Part shown: piece by piece, positions 45,636 to 64,000 of the stretch
Position numbering within the stretch: the stretch's first letter is position 1
Layout: the number at the start of each line of letters is the position of its first letter
Sequence record: PV808484.1
Source: a phage
Length of the DNA stretch: 64,000 nucleotides
Direction: 5' to 3' (one strand)
The notes under the pieces: generated by a model
Database searches by the model: none
Seen by the model: the letters and a program-made list of their open reading frames with translations, nothing else
What the model was told of the DNA's origin: nothing
Translations under genes and position numbers: made by a program

Positions 45636-45849
45636 TATTTTGAAAATTTTTATTTTTATAAAAAGGGGTGTGGGTTTCATGTACGGAAATCCACCCTCTG
45701 AATAATATATCCAGAGTAAGTATTATTCTGTACTCTGTTAATAAATTATTTAATTTGTTTGTTGGATTATGATATCTGGTTTTTAAAAGGCATACTATCT
45801 CTTAACTACTACTTATAACAGAACAGTAAAATCATTTTTATAAAAAGGA

Positions 45850-46055
45850 CAAAATTATTTAAAGTTTTTACAGATTTTTGGGTACAAATTTTGAAAATGA
45901 AAAGTTCAAGTTTGGTCAAAATTATTTAAAGTTTTTGTACGTATTTCCATCCAGATTTTGAAAATGAAAAGTTCAATTTTTTAAAAATTCCCCAGTTTAT
46001 TTAAAGTTTTTTTGCCTTTTTCCGTAGAAAAATCAAAAATGAAAAGTTCAATTTC
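45850..46055. repeat. three tandem ~67-bp direct repeats
   Basis: unit TATTTAAAGTTTTT ... TTTGAAAATGAAAAGTTCAA recurs at about 45856, 45923 and 45989. Confidence 0.6.
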
Positions 46056-46072
46056 GTGTTTTTATAGGTATG

Positions 46073-46190
46073 CGTATGATAATCATTCTCATTTGTAAAT
46101 GAGAATCATTATCATTTAATTATGTAAGTGATAATCATTCTCAGTAAGAGAATGAGAATCATTAGCAAATGAGAATTTTCTCATTTAGAG
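46073..46190. promoter_or_regulatory. cluster of three operator-like palindromes (Fur-box-like)
   Basis: GATAATCATTCTCATTT-GTA-AAATGAGAATCATTATC; GATAATCATTCTCA..GAGAATGAGAATCATTAGC; AAATGAGAATTTTCTCATTT. Confidence 0.5.
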
Positions 46191-46447
46191 AATAACGCGT
46201 AGGGGTGGTGTTTGTCTCGCGCTCCCGTGTCCCCTCGCCATACAATAAGAATAGCATAACCAACAACAAAAGCAAGCGATTATTTTTATCTTTACATTTC
46301 TTTACAAATTTATTTTAGACGAGCTACCGGCGATCAACCTTCCAACCAGTGTGCCCTGGTATGTTAGCCCCGCCTTTACGCCGTGGGGGTGGCGCTTCCT
46401 CTTCTGTATGTAAAACAGTATAAGCCCGATCCCTGGGCTTGTCAAGA

Positions 46448-46714
46448 TTATTTTTTGTTTTCTTGCCAGGATAGGACACCTAACCAAAAATACATGTCGC
46501 CCCGCGCCCCTGGCGGGATCTTGCTTTCCCCGCCGCCACTGCAAGCCCATAGATAACCATTTGCGAACGTATCAAAATGATCTATTTCTTCCACCTTATG
46601 ATCGCCCAGGTTGAGAACGGTTTCAACCTTTAAGCCCGTTGCGCTTGCTACCTGGTGCACCGTGCCGCCTTGCCAGCCTAATGAGTGCATGAGGTGTAAA
46701 GTAGTATTTGTCAT
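46448..46714 (-). CDS. hypothetical protein inside GC-rich island
   Basis: 88 aa from internal ATG 46714; opposite strand to neighbouring early genes; uncertain. Confidence 0.3.
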   Translation of the reverse strand: MTNTTLHLMHSLGWQGGTVHQVASATGLKVETVLNLGDHKVEEIDHFDTFANGYLWACSGGGESKIPPGARGDMYFWLGVLSWQENKK

Positions 46715-46824
46715 GGTATCGCCCTTTCTTTGATGTGCGCCCTGGTTGGCGCGGTAGAAAGATAATAGCCCCTTTCCTTTATAGATAGCAAGCAAAAAAG
46801 AAATGAAAAAAGATTAAAAAAGGG

Positions 46825-46853
46825 TTGACGTTCCTCACCTGGTAGCGTATTAT
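46825..46853 (+). promoter_or_regulatory. sigma70-like promoter
   Basis: TTGACG -17 bp- TATTAT; followed by strong SD and a 6-codon ORF (46907..46927). Confidence 0.45.
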
Positions 46854-46979
46854 TCATCTTGTCGAGGGGGGCGAGGCACAACGACAATAAACAAAAGGAG
46901 GGCGCAATGCAGGACGGGCAAAGGTGAGGATCTCCACAATCCACCGTCACAATAACATTACTTATAAAAGGTTGATAAC

Positions 46980-47075
46980 GATGATCAAGAAAGAAAACAG
47001 CTTGACGGTTGGAACGATTAACGCTATCATTTTCGCCGTTCCATTTTGGGTTGTAGTAGCGGTTATTATCTTTTA
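46980..47075 (+). CDS. small hydrophobic peptide (31 aa)
   Basis: MIKKENSLTVGTINAIIFAVPFWVVVAVIIF; AAAAGG upstream. Confidence 0.3.
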
Positions 47076-47130
47076 AAAATATTCTTGACAACGTTTTTTA
47101 ATCTGATAAGATGTATCACATAGGGCGGCA
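47075..47130 (+). promoter_or_regulatory. early promoter + 5' leader hairpin cassette
   Basis: TTGACA 47075-80, -10 TAAGAT, leader CACATAGG, hairpin GCGGC-AATAGT-GCCGC, ATG at 47165. Confidence 0.6.
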
Positions 47131-47164
47131 ATAGTGCCGCTCATAACAGAAGAGAGAAATAATC

Positions 47165-56725: not shown

Positions 56726-57109
56726 ATGAGCAATATCATCAACCTGGCAGCGACTGTAAACGGTAAAGACTTTAACGGCGCTGTAGACCGTGATCCTATG
56801 TGGTGCTTATCAGTGTTTAAAGGCGATCTGGTTGAAGTTAGAACAACCGAAGGGTATAGCGATGATTATAAATGCGAGATCCATTTACATAACTGGTACA
56901 CGGGGAAAACTTATGCGCTGAATCACGCGTTTATCGGGAAAATTGAATATCGCGAGATGATCGACGATGAAACGGGGCAAGATTTTAGTGATTATGTTTA
57001 TATTCGTTCAGAAACATTAGCCGAACGTTTGATCGAGAAAATGAAAGCAAAAAATAAAATTAATTTAGCTCATTGGCTTGATATAACAAATGATCCGGCT
57101 TACAAGTAA
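56726..57109 (+). CDS. hypothetical protein
   Basis: 127-aa ORF. Confidence 0.5.
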   Translation: MSNIINLAATVNGKDFNGAVDRDPMWCLSVFKGDLVEVRTTEGYSDDYKCEIHLHNWYTGKTYALNHAFIGKIEYREMIDDETGQDFSDYVYIRSETLAERLIEKMKAKNKINLAHWLDITNDPAYK

Positions 57110-57123
57110 ATAACATTTCATAC

Positions 57124-57150
57124 CAGGGCGCACAAAGCGCCCTTTCTTTT
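57124..57150 (+). terminator. rho-independent terminator
   Basis: GGGCGC-ACAAA-GCGCCC followed by TTTCTTTTT. Confidence 0.65.
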
Positions 57151-57354
57151 TACCTAAATAAAGATGATAGCTTTTACCTATCAAAAACATTCACCGAAAA
57201 AAGTGAATAGATCGCGGTATCGAGCTAATCAAGGAGCAGATGAACAACCATACCATGAAGATCATAAGGCGCTTACAACGTGTTTTAAACCGCTTATTTT
57301 TAATTTCTCCATGTAACTATCTGGCAAAAACAGCCTTTTTCGTGTCTTTCCTCT

Positions 57355-57435
57355 TAAGTGATAATCATTCTTATTTATAGCTGATTATTTATGCAATAAA
57401 CTGCATAATGCAATAATGATAATCATTCTTAACTT
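57355..57435. promoter_or_regulatory. pair of Fur-box-like sites
   Basis: GTGATAATCATTCTTA at about 57358 and AATGATAATCATTCTTA at about 57414. Confidence 0.45.
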
Positions 57436-57439
57436 ATGA

Positions 57440-57780
57440 CCATCTAACCTATAAAATAATAAGTTATCTAACTAAATTAAAGCTAATTATTTCACCTTTA
57501 TTTATAACTTACTGTTACTATCTCATTGATAACCTTATATTAAACAACAATAACTAATATAAATCATTACTAAGCTAAATATAATCTATCTAACCTTTAA
57601 AACTATAACTATAATCTATCGAATTGTTGCACAAAGTAACTATTAAATTGTTAGTAACATTACTAAATAATTCATATCCTATCTATTTATGATCTAATCT
57701 TTACTTTCCTATCTATTACCTAAATAATCCTATCATACAGTTACCATTTCATGTAATAATCATTTCATACAATAACTATA
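57440..57780. repeat. AT-rich iteron-like short repeats
   Basis: recurring CTATCTAACCT / CTATCTAT / ATAACTATAA words in 340 bp without coding potential. Confidence 0.45.
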
Positions 57781-57837
57781 ACAAGAAATATAATTCGCAA
57801 GCGTATCATTAGCAGCCTATGCCGGACACATAGGCGG

Positions 57838-57985
57838 CTAATAATAACGCAACTACACACCCCACATAATAACCATCACCGATAGTTATTATTTGTGCTT
57901 ATGTAGCTTGCAACAATTGCAAGCGCAACAATATACATGGTATATTGTATCCCTTACATTGTTGCGGTGCGTTATTATTAGCTAA
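57838..57985. repeat. long-range inverted repeat with internal palindrome
   Basis: GCTAATAATAACGCAAC ... GTTGCGGTGCGTTATTATTAGC ~110 bp apart; internal CTTGCAACAATTGCAAG. Confidence 0.45.
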
Positions 57986-58282
57986 TGTTTGGAACATTGG
58001 CTATAATATAAGCTAAATAATAAGCTATTCAATAATAAACATAATGAATAATGACACTGATGATCATAATGCGCCACCTTCCAGGGGGCGCTATGTGAAC
58101 ACAAAGAAATCTTTCTTGTCAAGAAAAATATTAACACTATTGCGCAAAATTATTTATGTCTGAATAGATGATTTTTCATACTATTGTTATTATTTATCGG
58201 CCCTAACTATTGCCTATTTGTTGAGCCTACTTTCTTAAAAGCGCAATAAATCAGAATTATCTTGATTTTTAGGGTGTTTTAT

Positions 58283-58305
58283 AGTATAGAAAATATGCAA
58301 ATGAT
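58283..58305. promoter_or_regulatory. Fur-box-like site (17/19 match to GATAATGATAATCATTATC)
   Basis: GCAAATGATAATCATTATC read directly. Confidence 0.5.
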
Positions 58306-58482
58306 AATCATTATCAGCTATCTTCCACGGGTGGCACTATTTCACGCAGGATCATTTCATTTGGCAAGGTGTATATAGATGTTTAGACTTGCCAAGCCAT
58401 TGATTTACTTAGAATTTATCTGTTTTGTTGTGAGTAGTACCTTTCTTGCTCAGAAAATAATCAAAAGTCTTATAAGTCATTG

Positions 58483-58515
58483 AATGATAATGCAAATGAT
58501 AATTATTCTCATTGA
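58483..58515. promoter_or_regulatory. overlapping Fur-box-like sites
   Basis: GAATGATAATGCAAATGATAATTATTCTCATTGAT. Confidence 0.45.
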
Positions 58516-58632
58516 TATTTGAGGGGGACGGTCGGCAGAAATCGGGGGGCGCTGAAAATCGCGTTAAGCACCTCTCGCAAGCGAGCAGTATTTTGCGGCA
58601 AGTTATTGATATTATTGGCTTTACGCTTATGG

Positions 58633-58730
58633 AAAGGGGGTGTGTCGAAATAAATCGGGTATACCGGAAAATTTTTGTGGCATAGATATTTATTTGTCTA
58701 TATTATGTACAAAGGGGTGTGTTAAAAATA
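58633..58730 (+). repeat. two copies of AAAGGGGTGTGT-containing ~35-bp direct repeat upstream of paralogue array
   Basis: AAAGGGGGTGTGTCGAAATAAATCGGGTATACC and AAAGGGGTGTGTTAAAAATATTAGGTATATA; third core copy at 45661. Confidence 0.45.
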
Positions 58731-58872
58731 TTAGGTATATATAGAATAATTGATAGGGAAATCCTATACTAATTCCTCCATTAATGATGTTTCTATGTTG
58801 CTGTTCTTGTAACAGATGAAAAGACGCTGTATGATGTGTAGCATGAAACGTAAATTTATAAAGGAGTCTGAT

Positions 58873-59241
58873 ATGTGTGTTCCTCTTAGCAGTCCTCTGC
58901 TGTTAGAATTTTACAAAGCATGGATGGAAGATCATTCCTCAATGCATCGTGAGAATGTTGGTTTGTGTAATTGCCTTATGGATTACCTGGCAACCACTAT
59001 GTCAAAGAAAAAGCCTACGGAAGAAGATATAGAATATTTCAAGATGGTTCGTAGCAAAACGCTGAAAGAGATGAAACTGCAATTCACGTGTGCTGGGCTA
59101 TCCTCCTTCCTACCCTTTAATTATGATCTTCTATGTTATGAAGATGAAGGTAAGACACATTCTTGCCATACCAACCCAAAGAGATTGCAGTGGGTGAAAG
59201 ATCGTATTGCCGATTCATGTTTGGTGTTAGGGGGGTGGTAA
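58873..59241 (+). CDS. paralogue family protein 1 (Cys/His small protein)
   Basis: start moved to ATG 58873 (AAGGAG upstream); FYKAW..GLCNCL.DY and HTNPKRLQWVKDRI. Confidence 0.5.
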   Translation: MCVPLSSPLLLEFYKAWMEDHSSMHRENVGLCNCLMDYLATTMSKKKPTEEDIEYFKMVRSKTLKEMKLQFTCAGLSSFLPFNYDLLCYEDEGKTHSCHTNPKRLQWVKDRIADSCLVLGGW

Positions 59242-59609
59242 TGAAAAGTAATATTCCGTTGAGTAGTGCAGCTTTAATACGATTCTATAAAGCATGGATT
59301 GCCAACCATCCGGCAATGAATCGCACAACGAGTGGCTTGTGTGGTTGTCTGGTAGATTATGTAGATGATTTTGTTGGCGAGGTAACTAGAGAAGAAGATA
59401 AAAGATGGCGTGATCGTTTGTTGGATAGTTTGAAATACGAAATGAGGAAACAATTTACATGTGCAGGACTGGACTACAATCTTCCGTTCAATGTAGATTG
59501 CATGGATTACCTTTCAGAGTGTATAGACTTGGCGTGTCATACCAACACGTTACGTCTTCAATGGGTGAAAGACAGAATCGAAGATGCAAATAATGCTTGC
59601 ATTGAATAG
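59241..59609 (+). CDS. paralogue family protein 2
   Basis: start ATG 59241 overlapping upstream stop (TAATG); same motifs. Confidence 0.5.
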   Translation: MKSNIPLSSAALIRFYKAWIANHPAMNRTTSGLCGCLVDYVDDFVGEVTREEDKRWRDRLLDSLKYEMRKQFTCAGLDYNLPFNVDCMDYLSECIDLACHTNTLRLQWVKDRIEDANNACIE

Positions 59610-59680
59610 AAATGTCTGTACACTGTGTTCCATAAGATATGCAATATCGCGCATAACAAAACTACTAATGAGAGGTGTAA

Positions 59681-60139
59681 ATGAAAACTGTATCTTTGTA
59701 TCTTGCTAACACGGAGCGTGTACATAATCTCGTAAAAGAATGCGGTGTGAGTGTTCAATTTAATACAGGAAAGCCTTCCGTGGTGACAGGCAGTGAGATG
59801 TGTGTTATTGATTTCCTCAATGAATATTTTCGTGGAAAACCTATTGCTCGTCACTTCATTCAAGAAATGCGAGATGTTCTACAGGATTATGAATTCTACC
59901 CAGAAGTTTGTGAACGCTATGAAACGATTCTTAGTTCTGTAGAAGATCCAGATACTAGTGAAACAGGTGCTTCCCACTTACTGTGGATGTTGAATGAAAT
60001 TCAGGATGGGTGTAATGGTATGTCTGAAACCAAACGCCATCGTTGGCTAGGCTATATTCAGGGTGTTATGGTTATGAAAAACCTTATTACAGTGAACGAT
60101 GAACGTAACGCTACACGCCCCGTCTTTAATGGAGCATAA
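59681..60139 (+). CDS. hypothetical protein
   Basis: 152-aa ORF. Confidence 0.5.
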   Translation: MKTVSLYLANTERVHNLVKECGVSVQFNTGKPSVVTGSEMCVIDFLNEYFRGKPIARHFIQEMRDVLQDYEFYPEVCERYETILSSVEDPDTSETGASHLLWMLNEIQDGCNGMSETKRHRWLGYIQGVMVMKNLITVNDERNATRPVFNGA

Positions 60140-60140
60140 C

Positions 60141-60356
60141 ATGAAAAGCATTAAGGTGTGTATTGAAAATAATTGTGGCTATCTGGGGTTGACACACGTT
60201 GCTTTCCCTCTTATATTGGATGCCGATATAGCTTACAGCGGAGTTGCTTATGTGTCATTCAAGACAATGAGCCAAGTACCTGGCTGGAATTGGGAAGTAG
60301 TTGATGTTGTTGAAGGAGAAGACTATGTTTTCCTTCCACACGAATATACTGTTTAA
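60141..60356 (+). CDS. hypothetical protein
   Basis: start moved from track 60099 to ATG 60141 (GGAG upstream). Confidence 0.45.
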   Translation: MKSIKVCIENNCGYLGLTHVAFPLILDADIAYSGVAYVSFKTMSQVPGWNWEVVDVVEGEDYVFLPHEYTV

Positions 60357-60371
60357 AGAGAGGAAAAGAAG

Positions 60372-60548
60372 ATGGATAAACAAACTACTGTGTACTTAGT
60401 AACAAAGAATACCCCAGGCTGGAGCCAATGCAGCACTGTCCCTTACAAGATTTGTGCAACATTAGAACTAGCACAACGCGCAGAAGCAGAAGTGGATGCC
60501 ATGCAATACAGCTATGGTGAGATCATTCCTTTTACTCTTGAACAATAA
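60372..60548 (+). CDS. small hypothetical protein (58 aa)
   Basis: not in ORF track; AGAGGAAAAGAAG upstream. Confidence 0.4.
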   Translation: MDKQTTVYLVTKNTPGWSQCSTVPYKICATLELAQRAEAEVDAMQYSYGEIIPFTLEQ

Positions 60549-60559
60549 GGAGTTGTGTA

Positions 60560-61012
60560 ATGTTTGAAATTGGTAAAGTGTATCGTTTTAAGAACGCATC
60601 TTATATCCGTAAGTTTGCTAATGTGTCTGAGTGCAATAGCAGGATTGCTTCTTTCTTAGGTGATTCCTGTTTTCGTGTATTAGATGTGGATGCCTGGTAT
60701 GGTGTCACTTCTTTGCAATCCTTAGCAGGAGAGCAAGAAATTATCACTCAAAATGAAGGAGACTTTGTTCTGTGTTACACATTGCTTGCAGAAAGTGAGT
60801 TTGAGTATTTTGTAGAAGTATTAGAAGAAGCACCAAAAAGTAAACACGAAGAGAAATACCTGCTTGTAGTGGATGGAGTTCCGATCATGGAAACCACCTC
60901 CCGTGAGGAAGTTGAAAAAGAGGCAAAACGTTACAAGCTGGATCGTACACAGAGTGTAGTTGAAGTCTATTCTCTTGTTGGTGTTGCAGATGTTCATGTG
61001 AACATTGTATAA
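60560..61012 (+). CDS. hypothetical protein
   Basis: 150 aa; AAGGAG upstream. Confidence 0.5.
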   Translation: MFEIGKVYRFKNASYIRKFANVSECNSRIASFLGDSCFRVLDVDAWYGVTSLQSLAGEQEIITQNEGDFVLCYTLLAESEFEYFVEVLEEAPKSKHEEKYLLVVDGVPIMETTSREEVEKEAKRYKLDRTQSVVEVYSLVGVADVHVNIV

Positions 61013-61015
61013 TAT

Positions 61016-61228
61016 ATGTGTAATGATAGATACATTCTTCGTGTATCTGATAAGTCTCCTATGTTTGACTGGCGGGGCTGGTGGCTACTAGCTCCGATGC
61101 AAGGTCTGACAGACGTGGAAAAGGAGGCTTATGTGTATACAAAAGAAGAGATAGAAGATAGCCTTTATTTGACAGATAACATTAAGAATGGTATCTTTGA
61201 GTGTAAATTGAAAGGAGAGGAAGAATGA
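61016..61228 (+). CDS. hypothetical protein
   Basis: 70-aa ORF. Confidence 0.45.
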   Translation: MCNDRYILRVSDKSPMFDWRGWWLLAPMQGLTDVEKEAYVYTKEEIEDSLYLTDNIKNGIFECKLKGEEE

Positions 61229-61524
61229 CTATTACAGAAAAACTGCGCTGTATTGCAAAGCAAAGTGGAGAAGGTTTATGGTTTCCTATTGAGGAAATTA
61301 TTCAGGACTGTTATGATCAGGCTAAGACTGGCAAATACTCCAAAGCATTTAAACCGTCTGTTTTCGGTTTGGATGACTATCCAAAAAATGAACAAGCAAA
61401 GAAACGACAAGTTGATTTGATTGATCTGGCTATGGAAGCACTACGAGAGCATGGACTTAGTAAGGTGTATGCTTTAAACACCAAAGAGGGCTTTGTAGAT
61501 TCCGTGATCGTAGACTGGTATTAA
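61225..61524 (+). CDS. hypothetical protein
   Basis: 99 aa; GGAGAGGAAG upstream. Confidence 0.5.
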   Translation: MTITEKLRCIAKQSGEGLWFPIEEIIQDCYDQAKTGKYSKAFKPSVFGLDDYPKNEQAKKRQVDLIDLAMEALREHGLSKVYALNTKEGFVDSVIVDWY

Positions 61525-61533
61525 GGAGAAGTC

Positions 61534-61902
61534 ATGCAAGAGAATAGTAAAGTGTGTAGCATGAAAAGCAGCCCCTATTTGCTACAATTTTATGAGTGGT
61601 GGTTAGAACAAGAAGATACAAACTTTAGCAAAAAACATTATGGTCTTTGCACGTGTCTTGTAGACTTCTTGTACAATATTGCTTTGATAAAAGATGTTGA
61701 GAATGTAGCAAAGCTCCAATCCTCTGTACGAGAGGAAATGAAGGAACAATTTAAGAAAGCGGGTTTGAACCATTTACATCCGTTTAATACGGATTTCTCG
61801 CACTACTTTACGGAAACAGAGCTAGGCATTGCACACCTTAATAAAGAACGTGTACAATGGGTGATTGATCGTATTCGTGATATGGAGGAATACAATGGTT
61901 AA
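61534..61902 (+). CDS. paralogue family protein 3
   Basis: 122 aa; FYEWW..GLCTCLVDF and HLNKERVQWVIDRI. Confidence 0.5.
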   Translation: MQENSKVCSMKSSPYLLQFYEWWLEQEDTNFSKKHYGLCTCLVDFLYNIALIKDVENVAKLQSSVREEMKEQFKKAGLNHLHPFNTDFSHYFTETELGIAHLNKERVQWVIDRIRDMEEYNG

Positions 61903-62104
61903 GTTTAAAACTTTCTGTGCAATCACTGTTTGTCTTATTCTTGCATACGTGTTATTCTCTGGTATCGTTCGTTTAGGTGAGTATATGGCAAGAGAAGCTC
62001 GTGAAAGTGCAGCTAAAAAAGAACAGTGTATTGTGTTCAAGCATCAAAGAGATGCTGAAAAGTTTCTTGAACAGGATTGTGGGCGCTATGTGAATTATAA
62101 TTAG
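61895..62104 (+). CDS. hypothetical protein with N-terminal hydrophobic segment
   Basis: start moved from track 61865 to ATG 61895 (GGAGGAA upstream). Confidence 0.45.
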   Translation: MVKFKTFCAITVCLILAYVLFSGIVRLGEYMAREARESAAKKEQCIVFKHQRDAEKFLEQDCGRYVNYN

Positions 62105-62113
62105 GAGGGAAGT

Positions 62114-62362
62114 ATGTTAGATATTTTTACCTTTGATCGTGTTGGTACACCGATTACCGAAGAAGAACGTACCAAAATTGAACAAGAATTGGATGCTTTA
62201 CGTGCGTCTCTTACAGACACAGCCTCACTACAACGTGAAGCTGCACATCTCACAGAGATCACTGGTATTCAGTGGAACACGGAGTGGGTTGTAATTACAA
62301 TTGAAGCGGATATTTGGGGACATGAAGAGACGCTACGTACCGGAGTAGTAACGGTTTGGTGA
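62114..62362 (+). CDS. hypothetical protein
   Basis: 82 aa; AGGAGGG upstream. Confidence 0.45.
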   Translation: MLDIFTFDRVGTPITEEERTKIEQELDALRASLTDTASLQREAAHLTEITGIQWNTEWVVITIEADIWGHEETLRTGVVTVW

Positions 62363-62408
62363 TAGATGTTATTCTTTTGTGTTTCTTGATATATAAATAG
62401 GAGGGTTT

Positions 62409-62633
62409 ATGGTAAAACGTCTGGAATGGGATGCGTGTACTGCTCACGCTTGTCACTGTGATATTGTTGAAGATCCTAATGGAGAGATGGTGTATTATGA
62501 GGATTACGAAGCATTGCACAATGCTGTGATTGCTTTACTGGATGATATTAGCTCACGCTATCCAGGACAACAATTCACGTGTCCACATATCCAACTATTA
62601 GCCGAACTTACGGAGTATCCAAGTGTTCCATAA
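62409..62633 (+). CDS. hypothetical protein
   Basis: 74 aa; AGGAGGG upstream. Confidence 0.45.
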   Translation: MVKRLEWDACTAHACHCDIVEDPNGEMVYYEDYEALHNAVIALLDDISSRYPGQQFTCPHIQLLAELTEYPSVP

Positions 62634-62634
62634 T

Positions 62635-62802
62635 ATGGGTGTCCCTGAACAACTGCTCTTTATTGTAGGATTAGTAGGCTTATTGGCGGCTGGCGCTAAA
62701 GCCGCTTCTCACACGCATCACATAATGTTAAGATTTCTGTTCCTACTCCCTTCTATCCTTGTATTATTAGTCATATTGATTGATAACATTTTTCACAATT
62801 AA
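62635..62802 (+). CDS. small membrane protein (55 aa)
   Basis: not in ORF track; start overlaps upstream stop (TAATATG); two hydrophobic segments. Confidence 0.4.
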   Translation: MGVPEQLLFIVGLVGLLAAGAKAASHTHHIMLRFLFLLPSILVLLVILIDNIFHN

Positions 62803-62811
62803 GGAGAGGTT

Positions 62812-63396
62812 ATGAGTAAAATTATACCAAGCAGTTATGAATTATTGCAGTTTTATGTATATTACTTAGACTGGGTTAATAGATCGAATGTTAAAGACAA
62901 TGCGATGTTTAGTAAAAACATCTGTTTAACAGAAAGTATCTTCCGTTATTGGCACACAGGCAGAAAGTGTACACACAGTGAAGCTATGCGCATTGTAGGT
63001 GAATACCTGGAGCAATTGCAAAAAGCAGAACTTCCTGTCCTTCACCCATTCAACGAATCTAAAGAAGAATTAGAACAAGAGTGTAGAGAAGGTAAGTGCC
63101 ATTTAAATGAAAAACGTATCGAATGGGTGAGGCAACGTTTAGCCGATGCAGGGAATCCTCCTAGTGACTCTGACTATACGTGGTATGATGTAGAGGGTTT
63201 AGTTCAAGGTTTTGAGGCTTGTGCTATAGGTAATACCAACTTTGCCAAAGTTTTATGCGAGGTTTATGATCTGGCAGATAAAATCCGAAATCACGGATGG
63301 AAACAAGAGCATAAAGAATCATATGAACGCCTTGACAAGATTTTCAAACAGATCTATTCTAACCACAAAGAGATGTTCCAAATGGAGGATGTGTAA
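62812..63396 (+). CDS. paralogue family protein 4 (extended)
   Basis: 194 aa; FYVYYLDW...HLNEKRIEWVRQRLADA; AAGGAGAGG upstream. Confidence 0.5.
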   Translation: MSKIIPSSYELLQFYVYYLDWVNRSNVKDNAMFSKNICLTESIFRYWHTGRKCTHSEAMRIVGEYLEQLQKAELPVLHPFNESKEELEQECREGKCHLNEKRIEWVRQRLADAGNPPSDSDYTWYDVEGLVQGFEACAIGNTNFAKVLCEVYDLADKIRNHGWKQEHKESYERLDKIFKQIYSNHKEMFQMEDV

Positions 63397-64000
63397 TGAA
63401 AGAGATTATGTTTGAAGGGCATCGTTACGAAGTTCCAGACAATGCAAATTTCATGGCTCGTGATATCACTGGAGATGTGTTCTGGTTTGAAGATGAACCT
63501 GTGTTTTCTTCGAACAAACACTGGTTTTCACAACAATCTTCTTCGGAAAATATGACTTTTGGCTACGTAGAGCCTAAAGTGCGCTGCAAAGCAGCTTCTT
63601 CTTTGGTAAAAATTTCCCAAGATGATCAAGAAAATACTCCAGATGTTGTTAGTGCACTACTGAAGTACATTGCAGAACTTGAGAAGAAAATTAAAGAAGC
63701 AGAAACTAAGGTGAAAGCACGATCAGCCATCATTGAAGCTATGTCTGAACGTATCTTAGAGCTAGAAGATTTGTGTGGAGAGGCTTATCAAGTGGTTGGT
63801 GCGCTGGCTTGTGAAGCACAAATGTTTGAAACTTCAGAACAAGTTTCACATATGTTAGATAATTTGAGTGAATGTAAAATGATTCATGATGATGTATTGC
63901 CATTTTGTTGCAATGTTAACAAAACAGAGCAAACACAAGATTCAGAAACAGTTTATGTTCCGCTAATGTGTGTTCCAGATCATCTAAAAGGTGTATTCTC
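63396..64000 (+). CDS. hypothetical protein (3' end outside window)
   Basis: ATG 63396 overlapping upstream stop (TAATG); frame open to window end (>200 codons); not in ORF track. Confidence 0.5.
   Translation, partial: MKEIMFEGHRYEVPDNANFMARDITGDVFWFEDEPVFSSNKHWFSQQSSSENMTFGYVEPKVRCKAASSLVKISQDDQENTPDVVSALLKYIAELEKKIKEAETKVKARSAIIEAMSERILELEDLCGEAYQVVGALACEAQMFETSEQVSHMLDNLSECKMIHDDVLPFCCNVNKTEQTQDSETVYVPLMCVPDHLKGVF

Follow-up and report, generated by a model that had tools for sequence, protein, structure and literature searches.

Several kinds of small phage protein offer themselves for comparison with the genes described here. Tad1, Tad2 and Acb2 sponges and Ocr/ArdA-type decoys are small, cytoplasmic and accessory, are patchily distributed among relatives and are often oligomeric stoichiometric binders, and the Lar/Ral-like restriction-alleviation family and the zinc-finger fold of lambda Ea8.5 represent small Cys/His-bearing proteins of accessory regions. 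In temperate phages the lambda exo-xis region and the P22 "ea" region carry a further set of such proteins, among them the Ea22 proteins, which are mosaic and have interchangeable C-terminal domains (PMC10834534). In this work we analyze a stretch of 64,000 nucleotides from phage sequence record PV808484.1 (the window), which derives from a Justusliebigvirus, a phi92-like E. coli myophage of the Stephanstirmvirinae, and in which four open reading frames (ORFs) on the + strand, named A to D, encode diverged copies of one domain. The gene family is already catalogued as PHROG 2510, 27059 and 6418, all with function unknown, and these entries are the same family as A-D but hold no data on function, fold, motif or copy number. 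We found no sequence or fold relationship of A-D to the Tad1/Tad2/Acb2 sponges or the Ocr/ArdA decoys; compared with Lar/Ral and Ea8.5, the family has an unconserved ligand set and an all-alpha bundle instead of a zinc knuckle or ribbon; and with the exo-xis and "ea" proteins the domain shares a genomic niche in temperate phages.

A sequence-only reading of the window had proposed a four-member family of small Cys/His proteins in this region. The four ORFs were found where it had placed them, and the peptide blocks that it had quoted are present in their translations. It is clear from pairwise BLASTP that the four products are related: A and B share 47% identity over 113 amino acids (aa; E 9e-35), A and C 39% (E 1.5e-25), B and C 37% (E 5e-21) and C and D 31% over 114 aa (E 1.5e-10), with A-D (E 8e-9) and B-D (E 5e-9) matching in the C-terminal half only, and the alignment of all four contains 22 invariant columns. 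Each of the four ORFs matches PHROG 2510, a family of unknown function, over the whole domain. A hidden Markov model (HMM) built from 67 family members, with D left out, was scanned against the 622 stop-to-stop ORFs of the window; it found D at E 6e-24 and no fifth copy among these ORFs. A profile search covering 1.84 billion representative proteins returned 775 representatives at E≤1e-3, of which 159 passed E≤1e-10. About half of the codon changes that separate close relatives are synonymous (12:9, 4:4 and 9:2), which points to purifying selection and real genes. The BLASTP values between 9e-35 and 8e-9, the PHROG 2510 matches and the D-free HMM bear out the family as one of true paralogues, and they show that A-D are diverged copies (30-47% identity) of a phage-specific five-helix domain of approximately 105 residues. 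Chance or low-complexity similarity, or ORFs that are not genes, can be dismissed with near certainty in view of E values down to 9e-35, the recovery of D by the HMM and the 775 homologous representatives, and the sequences themselves are not of low complexity.

The region is well represented among related phages. Positions 58500-63600 match Escherichia phage EmilieFrey (BASEL Bas61; Justusliebigvirus, Stephanstirmvirinae) at 98.0% identity over the full length and many further phi92-like phages at 96-97%, and the phi92 counterparts of C and D are gp006 (97.5%) and gp010, respectively. In the records of these relatives the genes under the match are all named "hypothetical", save for a few annotations transferred by similarity. 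This E. coli phage region also shares 96.7% identity with four records labelled as Campylobacter phage (MG065639, MG065645, MG065656 and MG065689, host C. jejuni), which are probably mislabelled or derived from a contaminating coliphage.

The start of A agrees with the EmilieFrey annotation. As the sequence-only reading had it, A and B are joined by a TAATG overlap, the TAA stop of A (59239-59241) sharing a base with the ATG of B (59241-59243), and the start of B is preceded by AGGGGGG, a G-rich Shine-Dalgarno-like stretch. The C-terminal extension of D is mostly helical by prediction, with low confidence, has an isoelectric point (pI) of 4.9, and found no homologues beyond near-identical D orthologues. 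The tail of A (59200-59241) ends in ..ADSCLVLGGW, whereas a 90%-identical relative (P0188) ends in ..EDANNACIE, as B does, and in phage PATM a 1-nucleotide (nt) indel lies within the A gene; it seems as if the 3' tail of A has been remodelled through a frameshift or through recombination with B. The coordinates of these features are collected in Table 1.

Table 1 Features of the A-D locus in the window (pLDDT, predicted local distance difference test)
Feature	Position	Strand	Remarks
ORF-free gap between terminator and A, outside family	57110..58872	.	Fur-box-like sites and 37-nt repeat
Shine-Dalgarno AAGGAG	58861..58866	+	6 nt 5' of the ATG of A; direct sequence reading
Paralogue A	58873..59241	+	122 aa; first gene past the 1.7-kb ORF-free gap; PHROG 2510 E 1.1e-21
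TAATG stop/start overlap A-B (translational coupling)	59239..59243	+	Direct sequence reading
Paralogue B	59241..59609	+	122 aa; PHROG 2510 E 7.7e-24
Paralogue C	61534..61902	+	122 aa; equals phi92 gp006; PHROG 2510 E 9.4e-26
Paralogue D, whole ORF	62812..63396	+	Equals phi92 gp010; full-length member of PHROG 27059, E 1.5e-138
D N-terminal family domain, residues 1-113	62812..63150	+	PHROG 2510 E 5.1e-18; pLDDT 86-96 over residues 11-110, above 90 for most of the domain
D acidic C-terminal extension, approximately 80 aa plus stop codon	63151..63396	+	Lineage-specific; pLDDT 44-73 past residue 110

The AlphaFold2 model of A (pLDDT 87.4, predicted template modelling score 0.81) is all-alpha, with helices at residues 8-18, 30-43, 50-73, 86-95 and 102-120 and no strands. 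From an alignment of 172 domain instances we derived the family motif SS..L..FY..(W/Y)L ... GLC.(N/C)L ... EM..QF..AGL...PFN.....Y..E.....(C)(H/Y)LN..R..WV..R. Its core, FY..W / GLC / E..QF..AGL...PFN / Y..E / HLN..R..WV, is present in A, B and C, and D retains each block with only one Cys of the GLCxC pair. In the 67-sequence alignment one Tyr, one Cys, a Pro-Phe pair, one Arg and one Val are invariant, and a Ser, Leu, Phe, Gly, Leu, Glu, Gln, Phe, Leu, Asn and Trp show a conservation of 90% or more, while residues 44-60, the segment between helices 2 and 3, vary in length (columns with 40-79% gaps). A large part of the motif has the look of helix caps (SS, G, AGL and N-P) or of core residues. 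Besides caps and core there is a polar set consisting of Y14, C32, E66, Q70, N83, Y89, E92, C98/H99, N101 and R104, in which positions 83, 92, 98 and 101 co-vary by mutual-information analysis; the N-E-C-H-N signature is the most common combination (55 domains), and in tandem proteins one of the repeats often carries a degenerate version of it. The median pI of the family proteins is 5.1, a mild acidity that argues against DNA binding.

The fold did not lead to a described protein. Neither A-D nor ten fused or long homologues had a match in Pfam, NCBIfam or PADLOC, where PADLOC-DB gave only two insignificant matches (E 0.015 and 0.022), and the 67 members showed no recurring weak Pfam match, the 22 families that appeared each being matched by a single member. 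Searching the PDB by sequence yielded only parathyroid-hormone noise with a four-sequence profile and nothing with the 67-sequence profile, and no significant structural relative was found there either. Foldseek against BFVD returned only uncharacterised proteins from phages of Pectobacterium, Rhizobium, Burkholderia, Delftia, Pseudomonas and Erwinia. Word-indexed homologue searches gave nearly only close relatives, none of them named; homologues are called "hypothetical protein" or, for one fusion, "DUF551 domain-containing protein".

With tblastn the domain was detected in 170 phage records, whose phages include the Stephanstirmvirinae, a few Vequintavirinae, N4-like Erwinia phages, Skatevirus, Rhizobium phages and a jumbo Erwinia phage, and BFVD adds Burkholderia jumbo, Delftia, Pseudomonas and Pectobacterium phages; the matches from both sources are phages of Proteobacteria. 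In the N4-like Erwinia phages the domain gene lies near the left end, upstream of RNA polymerase 1. The type of member found in phage W70 is limited to a handful of Vequintavirinae, and upstream of this member (locus L007, 3924-4008) there is an intergenic piece of approximately 85 nt that is 84-89% identical to many T4-like phages and may be a shared mobile intergenic element. No match was found among 72,556 plasmids (tblastn).

Copy number varies among close relatives, which fits an accessory family. In Phapecoctavirus phiWec179 a 12-kb stretch contains seven copies, of which three stand in tandem directly past an ORF-free gap, as in our window, and in phi92, PHB05 and others we found a C-type match only and no A/B-type copy. 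B is 96.7% identical at the nucleotide level to one of the phiWec179 copies (locus L006, 12738-13106), and no blastn match to A, C or D was obtained in the 24-kb phiWec179 locus. That B alone is near-identical across genera suggests a recent exchange of B between them.

The domain also occurs two or three times in single polypeptides (e.g. P0015, P0027 and the three-domain BcepSaruman protein P0148) and is fused to DUF551 in phage Av-05. In a P22-like prophage it sits inside a 402-aa Ea22-like mosaic protein in the PL operon, between abc2 (anti-RecBCD) and int, with Ead_Ea22 and DUF551 genes as neighbours; this mosaic gene had no match among E. coli complete genomes. The kinship is limited to the fusions and the neighbourhood: A-D do not match the Ead/Ea22 model PF13935 (coiled-coil region), which merely co-occurs with the domain in prophages, nor the DUF551 model PF04448, which is a fusion partner only, in Av-05-like proteins. 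The domain is a portable accessory module of virulent and temperate phages alike.

From the fold, the conserved residues and the distribution described above we tentatively infer that the family is a dispensable module for binding host or defence components. The proteins would then be cytoplasmic and work through stoichiometric binding, and not as zinc fingers or DNA binders. The helix-capping and hydrophobic motif residues would hold a rigid scaffold, on which the conserved polar residues, namely the cluster of N83, E92, C98/H99 and N101 together with the invariant C32, Y14 and R104, could form one pocket or contact surface, as judged from the alignment. The target of such a pocket would be common to Proteobacteria, either a conserved host protein or a small ligand. 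Specificity of the individual paralogues might come from the loop between helices 2 and 3 and from the C-terminal tails, including the 80-aa acidic extension of D, and the duplication, loss and inter-genus exchange of copies may track variable host factors such as defence systems. With their extra cysteines, A, B and D may have a stabilising metal site in addition, as a feature of this subgroup and not as the basis of the family.

Several points weigh against a host- or defence-binding role. The ten neighbours scanned around the copies in the window include no known anti-defence or host-takeover gene, and our literature search found no paper on A-D or their family and no published screen covering them. 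In addition, many of the conserved residues are caps or core, so that the "pocket" could amount to nothing but a structural network of hydrogen bonds, and the co-variation of positions 83, 92, 98 and 101 may in part reflect subfamily phylogeny.

One alternative is that zinc or another metal defines the fold, with Cys32, Cys34, Cys98 and His99 as a tetrahedral site keeping the small domain together, and the sequence-only reading had taken the conserved Cys and His as a sign of a zinc-binding fold. This calls for a correction: no more than one Cys column and one His column are invariant across A-D, and in the wider family only one Cys is near-invariant. The candidate ligand positions 32, 34, 93, 98 and 99 (A numbering) were scored in 142 complete domains, and at least four of the five are Cys or His in only 15 of these (11%), three in 65, and at most two in 62 (44%). 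Position 32 is the sole near-invariant Cys of the family. Position 34 is Asn in 52% and Cys in 15% of instances; position 98 is Cys in 51%, its substitutes being A, M, T and S; at position 99 His accounts for 72% and Tyr for 12%, with Arg or Asn in others. The complete C-C-C-H pattern is found in eight of 172 instances, and Cys34 does not accompany Cys-His at 98/99 above expectation (observed 40%, expected 38%).

The paralogues themselves differ in this respect. A has the C-C-C-H set (C32, C34, C98 and H99), B has all five positions filled, each with seven Cys in 122 aa, and D combines one Cys of the first pair with C93, C98 and H99; C has no Cys at position 98 (C, C, A, H) and is left with three candidate ligands. 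The sets in A, B and D speak for a metal-defined fold, as do the good retention of C32, C34 and H99 in an enterobacterial CxC subgroup and the fact that each of the 98/99 occupants (C or M, H or Y) could serve as a metal ligand. The family-wide substitutions just listed and the incomplete set in C speak against it, and so does AlphaFold2, which gives a confident five-helix bundle from sequence alone. The model is all-alpha and has no zinc-knuckle elements; in Pfam no zinc-finger HMM matched A-D, nor was there a consistent weak match over the 67 members. We regard a metal-defined fold as unlikely, and a family-wide zinc site is mostly not supported, the Cys/His pattern being a subgroup feature and no marker of a zinc-finger family. 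A metal site confined to the Cys-rich enterobacterial subgroup, which would take in A, B and D among the copies, is possible on the residue pattern, with the chances well short of even.

The invariant Cys allows for a different explanation, namely an enzyme or reactive-thiol protein in which the helix-2 Cys, activated by the invariant Arg and Tyr (plus His/Glu), is a nucleophilic or redox-sensing thiol directed at a host protein or small molecule. Cys, Tyr and Arg are the only polar or reactive residues among those invariant in the 67-sequence alignment, the rest being Pro, Phe and Val, and the Cys opens the predicted helix 2 (G30-L31-C32; helix 30-43). A Cys at the N-terminus of a helix has a lowered thiol pKa. 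Glu66, Glu92 and His99 are frequent as well, but His99 is not conserved, certain repeat units have V, N, R or M in place of the Cys, approximately 105 aa is small for an enzyme, and there is no sequence or fold similarity to any known thiol enzyme. A thiol-based function is rather improbable, slightly more so than a metal-defined fold.

The conserved polar residues could also belong to a sponge that sequesters an immune signalling nucleotide or some other small metabolite, similar in action to the Tad and Acb proteins yet unrelated to them, with paralogues and tandem fusions building oligomeric pockets. Conservation of Tyr, Trp, Arg, Asn, Glu, Gln and His/Tyr across distant phages of Proteobacteria suits a universal small ligand over a lineage-specific protein, and the two- and three-fold tandem fusions suggest an oligomeric unit. 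However, none of the known sponges gave a structural match in the PDB, no association with known anti-Thoeris genes or with genes against the cyclic-oligonucleotide-based antiphage signalling system (CBASS) was seen, and a single ligand is hard to square with nine diverged copies in one genome. We consider a sponge to have only about a small outside chance.

Less probable still, by analogy with Ea22, would be a regulator of the phage's own development, a modulator of transcription or of lysis-lysogeny that is not aimed at host defences. The presence of the domain within Ea22-like mosaic proteins of the PL operon is consistent with this, and Ea22 has been reported to favour lysogeny (PMC7093339, PMC10834534). 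Most members found, however, sit in virulent phages without a lysogeny decision, the proteins are acidic and have no helix-turn-helix match, and copy number varies freely between near-identical phages, which is unexpected for a core regulator.

Two specific candidates were rejected. Atd1, an inhibitor of Toll/interleukin-1 receptor (TIR) defences, is the only anti-defence gene that has been reported from Justusliebigvirus; it is MazG-like, a pyrophosphatase, and A-D have no match to MazG or any other Pfam family. A HEPN-like helical nuclease (R-x4-6-H) does not apply, as the motif order is reversed here (H-x4-R), the His is variable and there is no HEPN Pfam match.

The copies are separated by genes (59681-61524 and 61895-62802) of other, unrelated families without an assigned function. 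When the neighbours were scanned against PHROGs, ten of ten fell in groups of unknown function, and the only named matches were weak ones to Lar-like and GoF proteins. The Lar-like match, to a restriction-alleviation PHROG (E 8e-4), comes from a 74-aa ORF at 62409-62633 with the Cys/His cluster CTAHACHCD, which by its sequence would be a better zinc-ribbon candidate than the A-D family. The 150-aa ORF at 60560-61012 weakly matches PHROGs of GoF, an mRNA metabolism modulator (E 1e-5), which accounts for the GoF annotation in phage Eryne. The last gene ahead of the terminator and gap, at 56726-57109, belongs to the T4 gp30.8 family (Pfam PF06019, E 3e-29).

The A-D genes had been assigned to an early region, and the layout of transcription signals does not bear this out. 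Between 46800 and 56400 the + strand carries approximately 25 strong sigma-70-like promoters with a perfect TTGACA, about one per intergenic spacer before small genes, two of them with 12/12 matches, and this promoter-rich block is closed by a strong intrinsic terminator at 57125-57143. The A-D block, whose genes overlap or lie close together, starts behind this terminator and past the 1.7-kb ORF-free gap. From 58873 onwards the pattern of one strong TTGACA promoter per gene seen at 46.8-56.4 kb is absent, only three such promoters (60189, 61169 and 63332) being found within the block. No promoter of the quality seen in the TTGACA block was found ahead of A. The differing promoter layout means that the two blocks are probably of different transcription classes. 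The gap in front of A is likely the control region of the A-D block.

This gap contains several sites resembling Fur boxes. The one at 58302-58316 is a perfect 7-1-7 palindrome, TGATAATCATTATCA, and those at 57359-57373, 57417-57431 and 58497-58511 have one or two mismatches. A 37-nt repeat that occurs three times in the gap (58051, 58295 and 58490) embeds Fur-box-like sites. A second large ORF-poor gap, at approximately 45640-47160, precedes the promoter-rich block and holds a dense cluster (46072-46170) of at least four Fur-box-like sites with one or two mismatches to the 7-1-7 core. In the whole window the 19-bp Fur consensus has five matches with at most three mismatches, where 0.03 are expected. 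The sites are conserved in EmilieFrey, in PATM and in the equivalent gap of Phapecoctavirus, and the 46-kb cluster, as a 200-bp segment, is conserved across 182 phage records, Phapecoctavirus among them, and is matched in part by T5-like phages; in two records the segment is annotated merely as "repeat_region".

Near family members in other phages, the Vequintavirinae, N4-like, Seunavirus and prophage loci contained no Fur boxes, and the Skatevirus locus gave a single weak match with two mismatches. On this basis a link to Fur or iron as a property of the family was rejected, and we take the sites as a regulatory feature of this lineage, not of the protein family. Our literature search found no report of Fur boxes in virulent coliphages. 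Expression of the accessory operon might be tied to iron status, something for which we found no report in a virulent coliphage.

Immediately upstream of the 46-kb Fur-box cluster lie three direct repeats of approximately 79 nt (45834-46054, spacing 67 and 75 nt), each ending in a TTTTGAAAATGAAAAGTTCAA-like sequence. The sequence AA(A/G)GGGGTGTG has three occurrences (45662, 58634 and 58711), all within the two large gaps, a placement that is suggestive of a phage-specific promoter or operator, but it shows no statistical enrichment (1.4 expected); nor does the motif AAAGGGGTGTG, confined to the two gaps (3 found, 1.4 expected). Rfam scans of both gaps gave nothing significant.

Above we showed that the four genes are copies of one domain, and overall we regard this as a real finding of an ordinary kind: an expanded accessory family, catalogued as a PHROG and now better described. 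It is conceivable, if improbable, that the domain stands for more than this, a new and widespread class of phage effector with a Cys-centred polar pocket, acting on a conserved host molecule as a new sponge or enzyme or else serving as a scaffold diversified against different defence systems. This would account for the tandem fusions and for genomes with as many as nine copies, and the Stephanstirmvirinae block might be tied to host iron status through the Fur boxes. The domain is common, with 775 representative clusters from phages of Enterobacteria, Erwinia, Rhizobium, Burkholderia, Pseudomonas and Delftia and from P22-like prophages, and has neither a Pfam model nor a solved structure. Its expansion and turnover in the Stephanstirmvirinae, its modular fusions and its polar signature make it a sensible candidate for screens of counter-defence and host manipulation and for a new domain entry.

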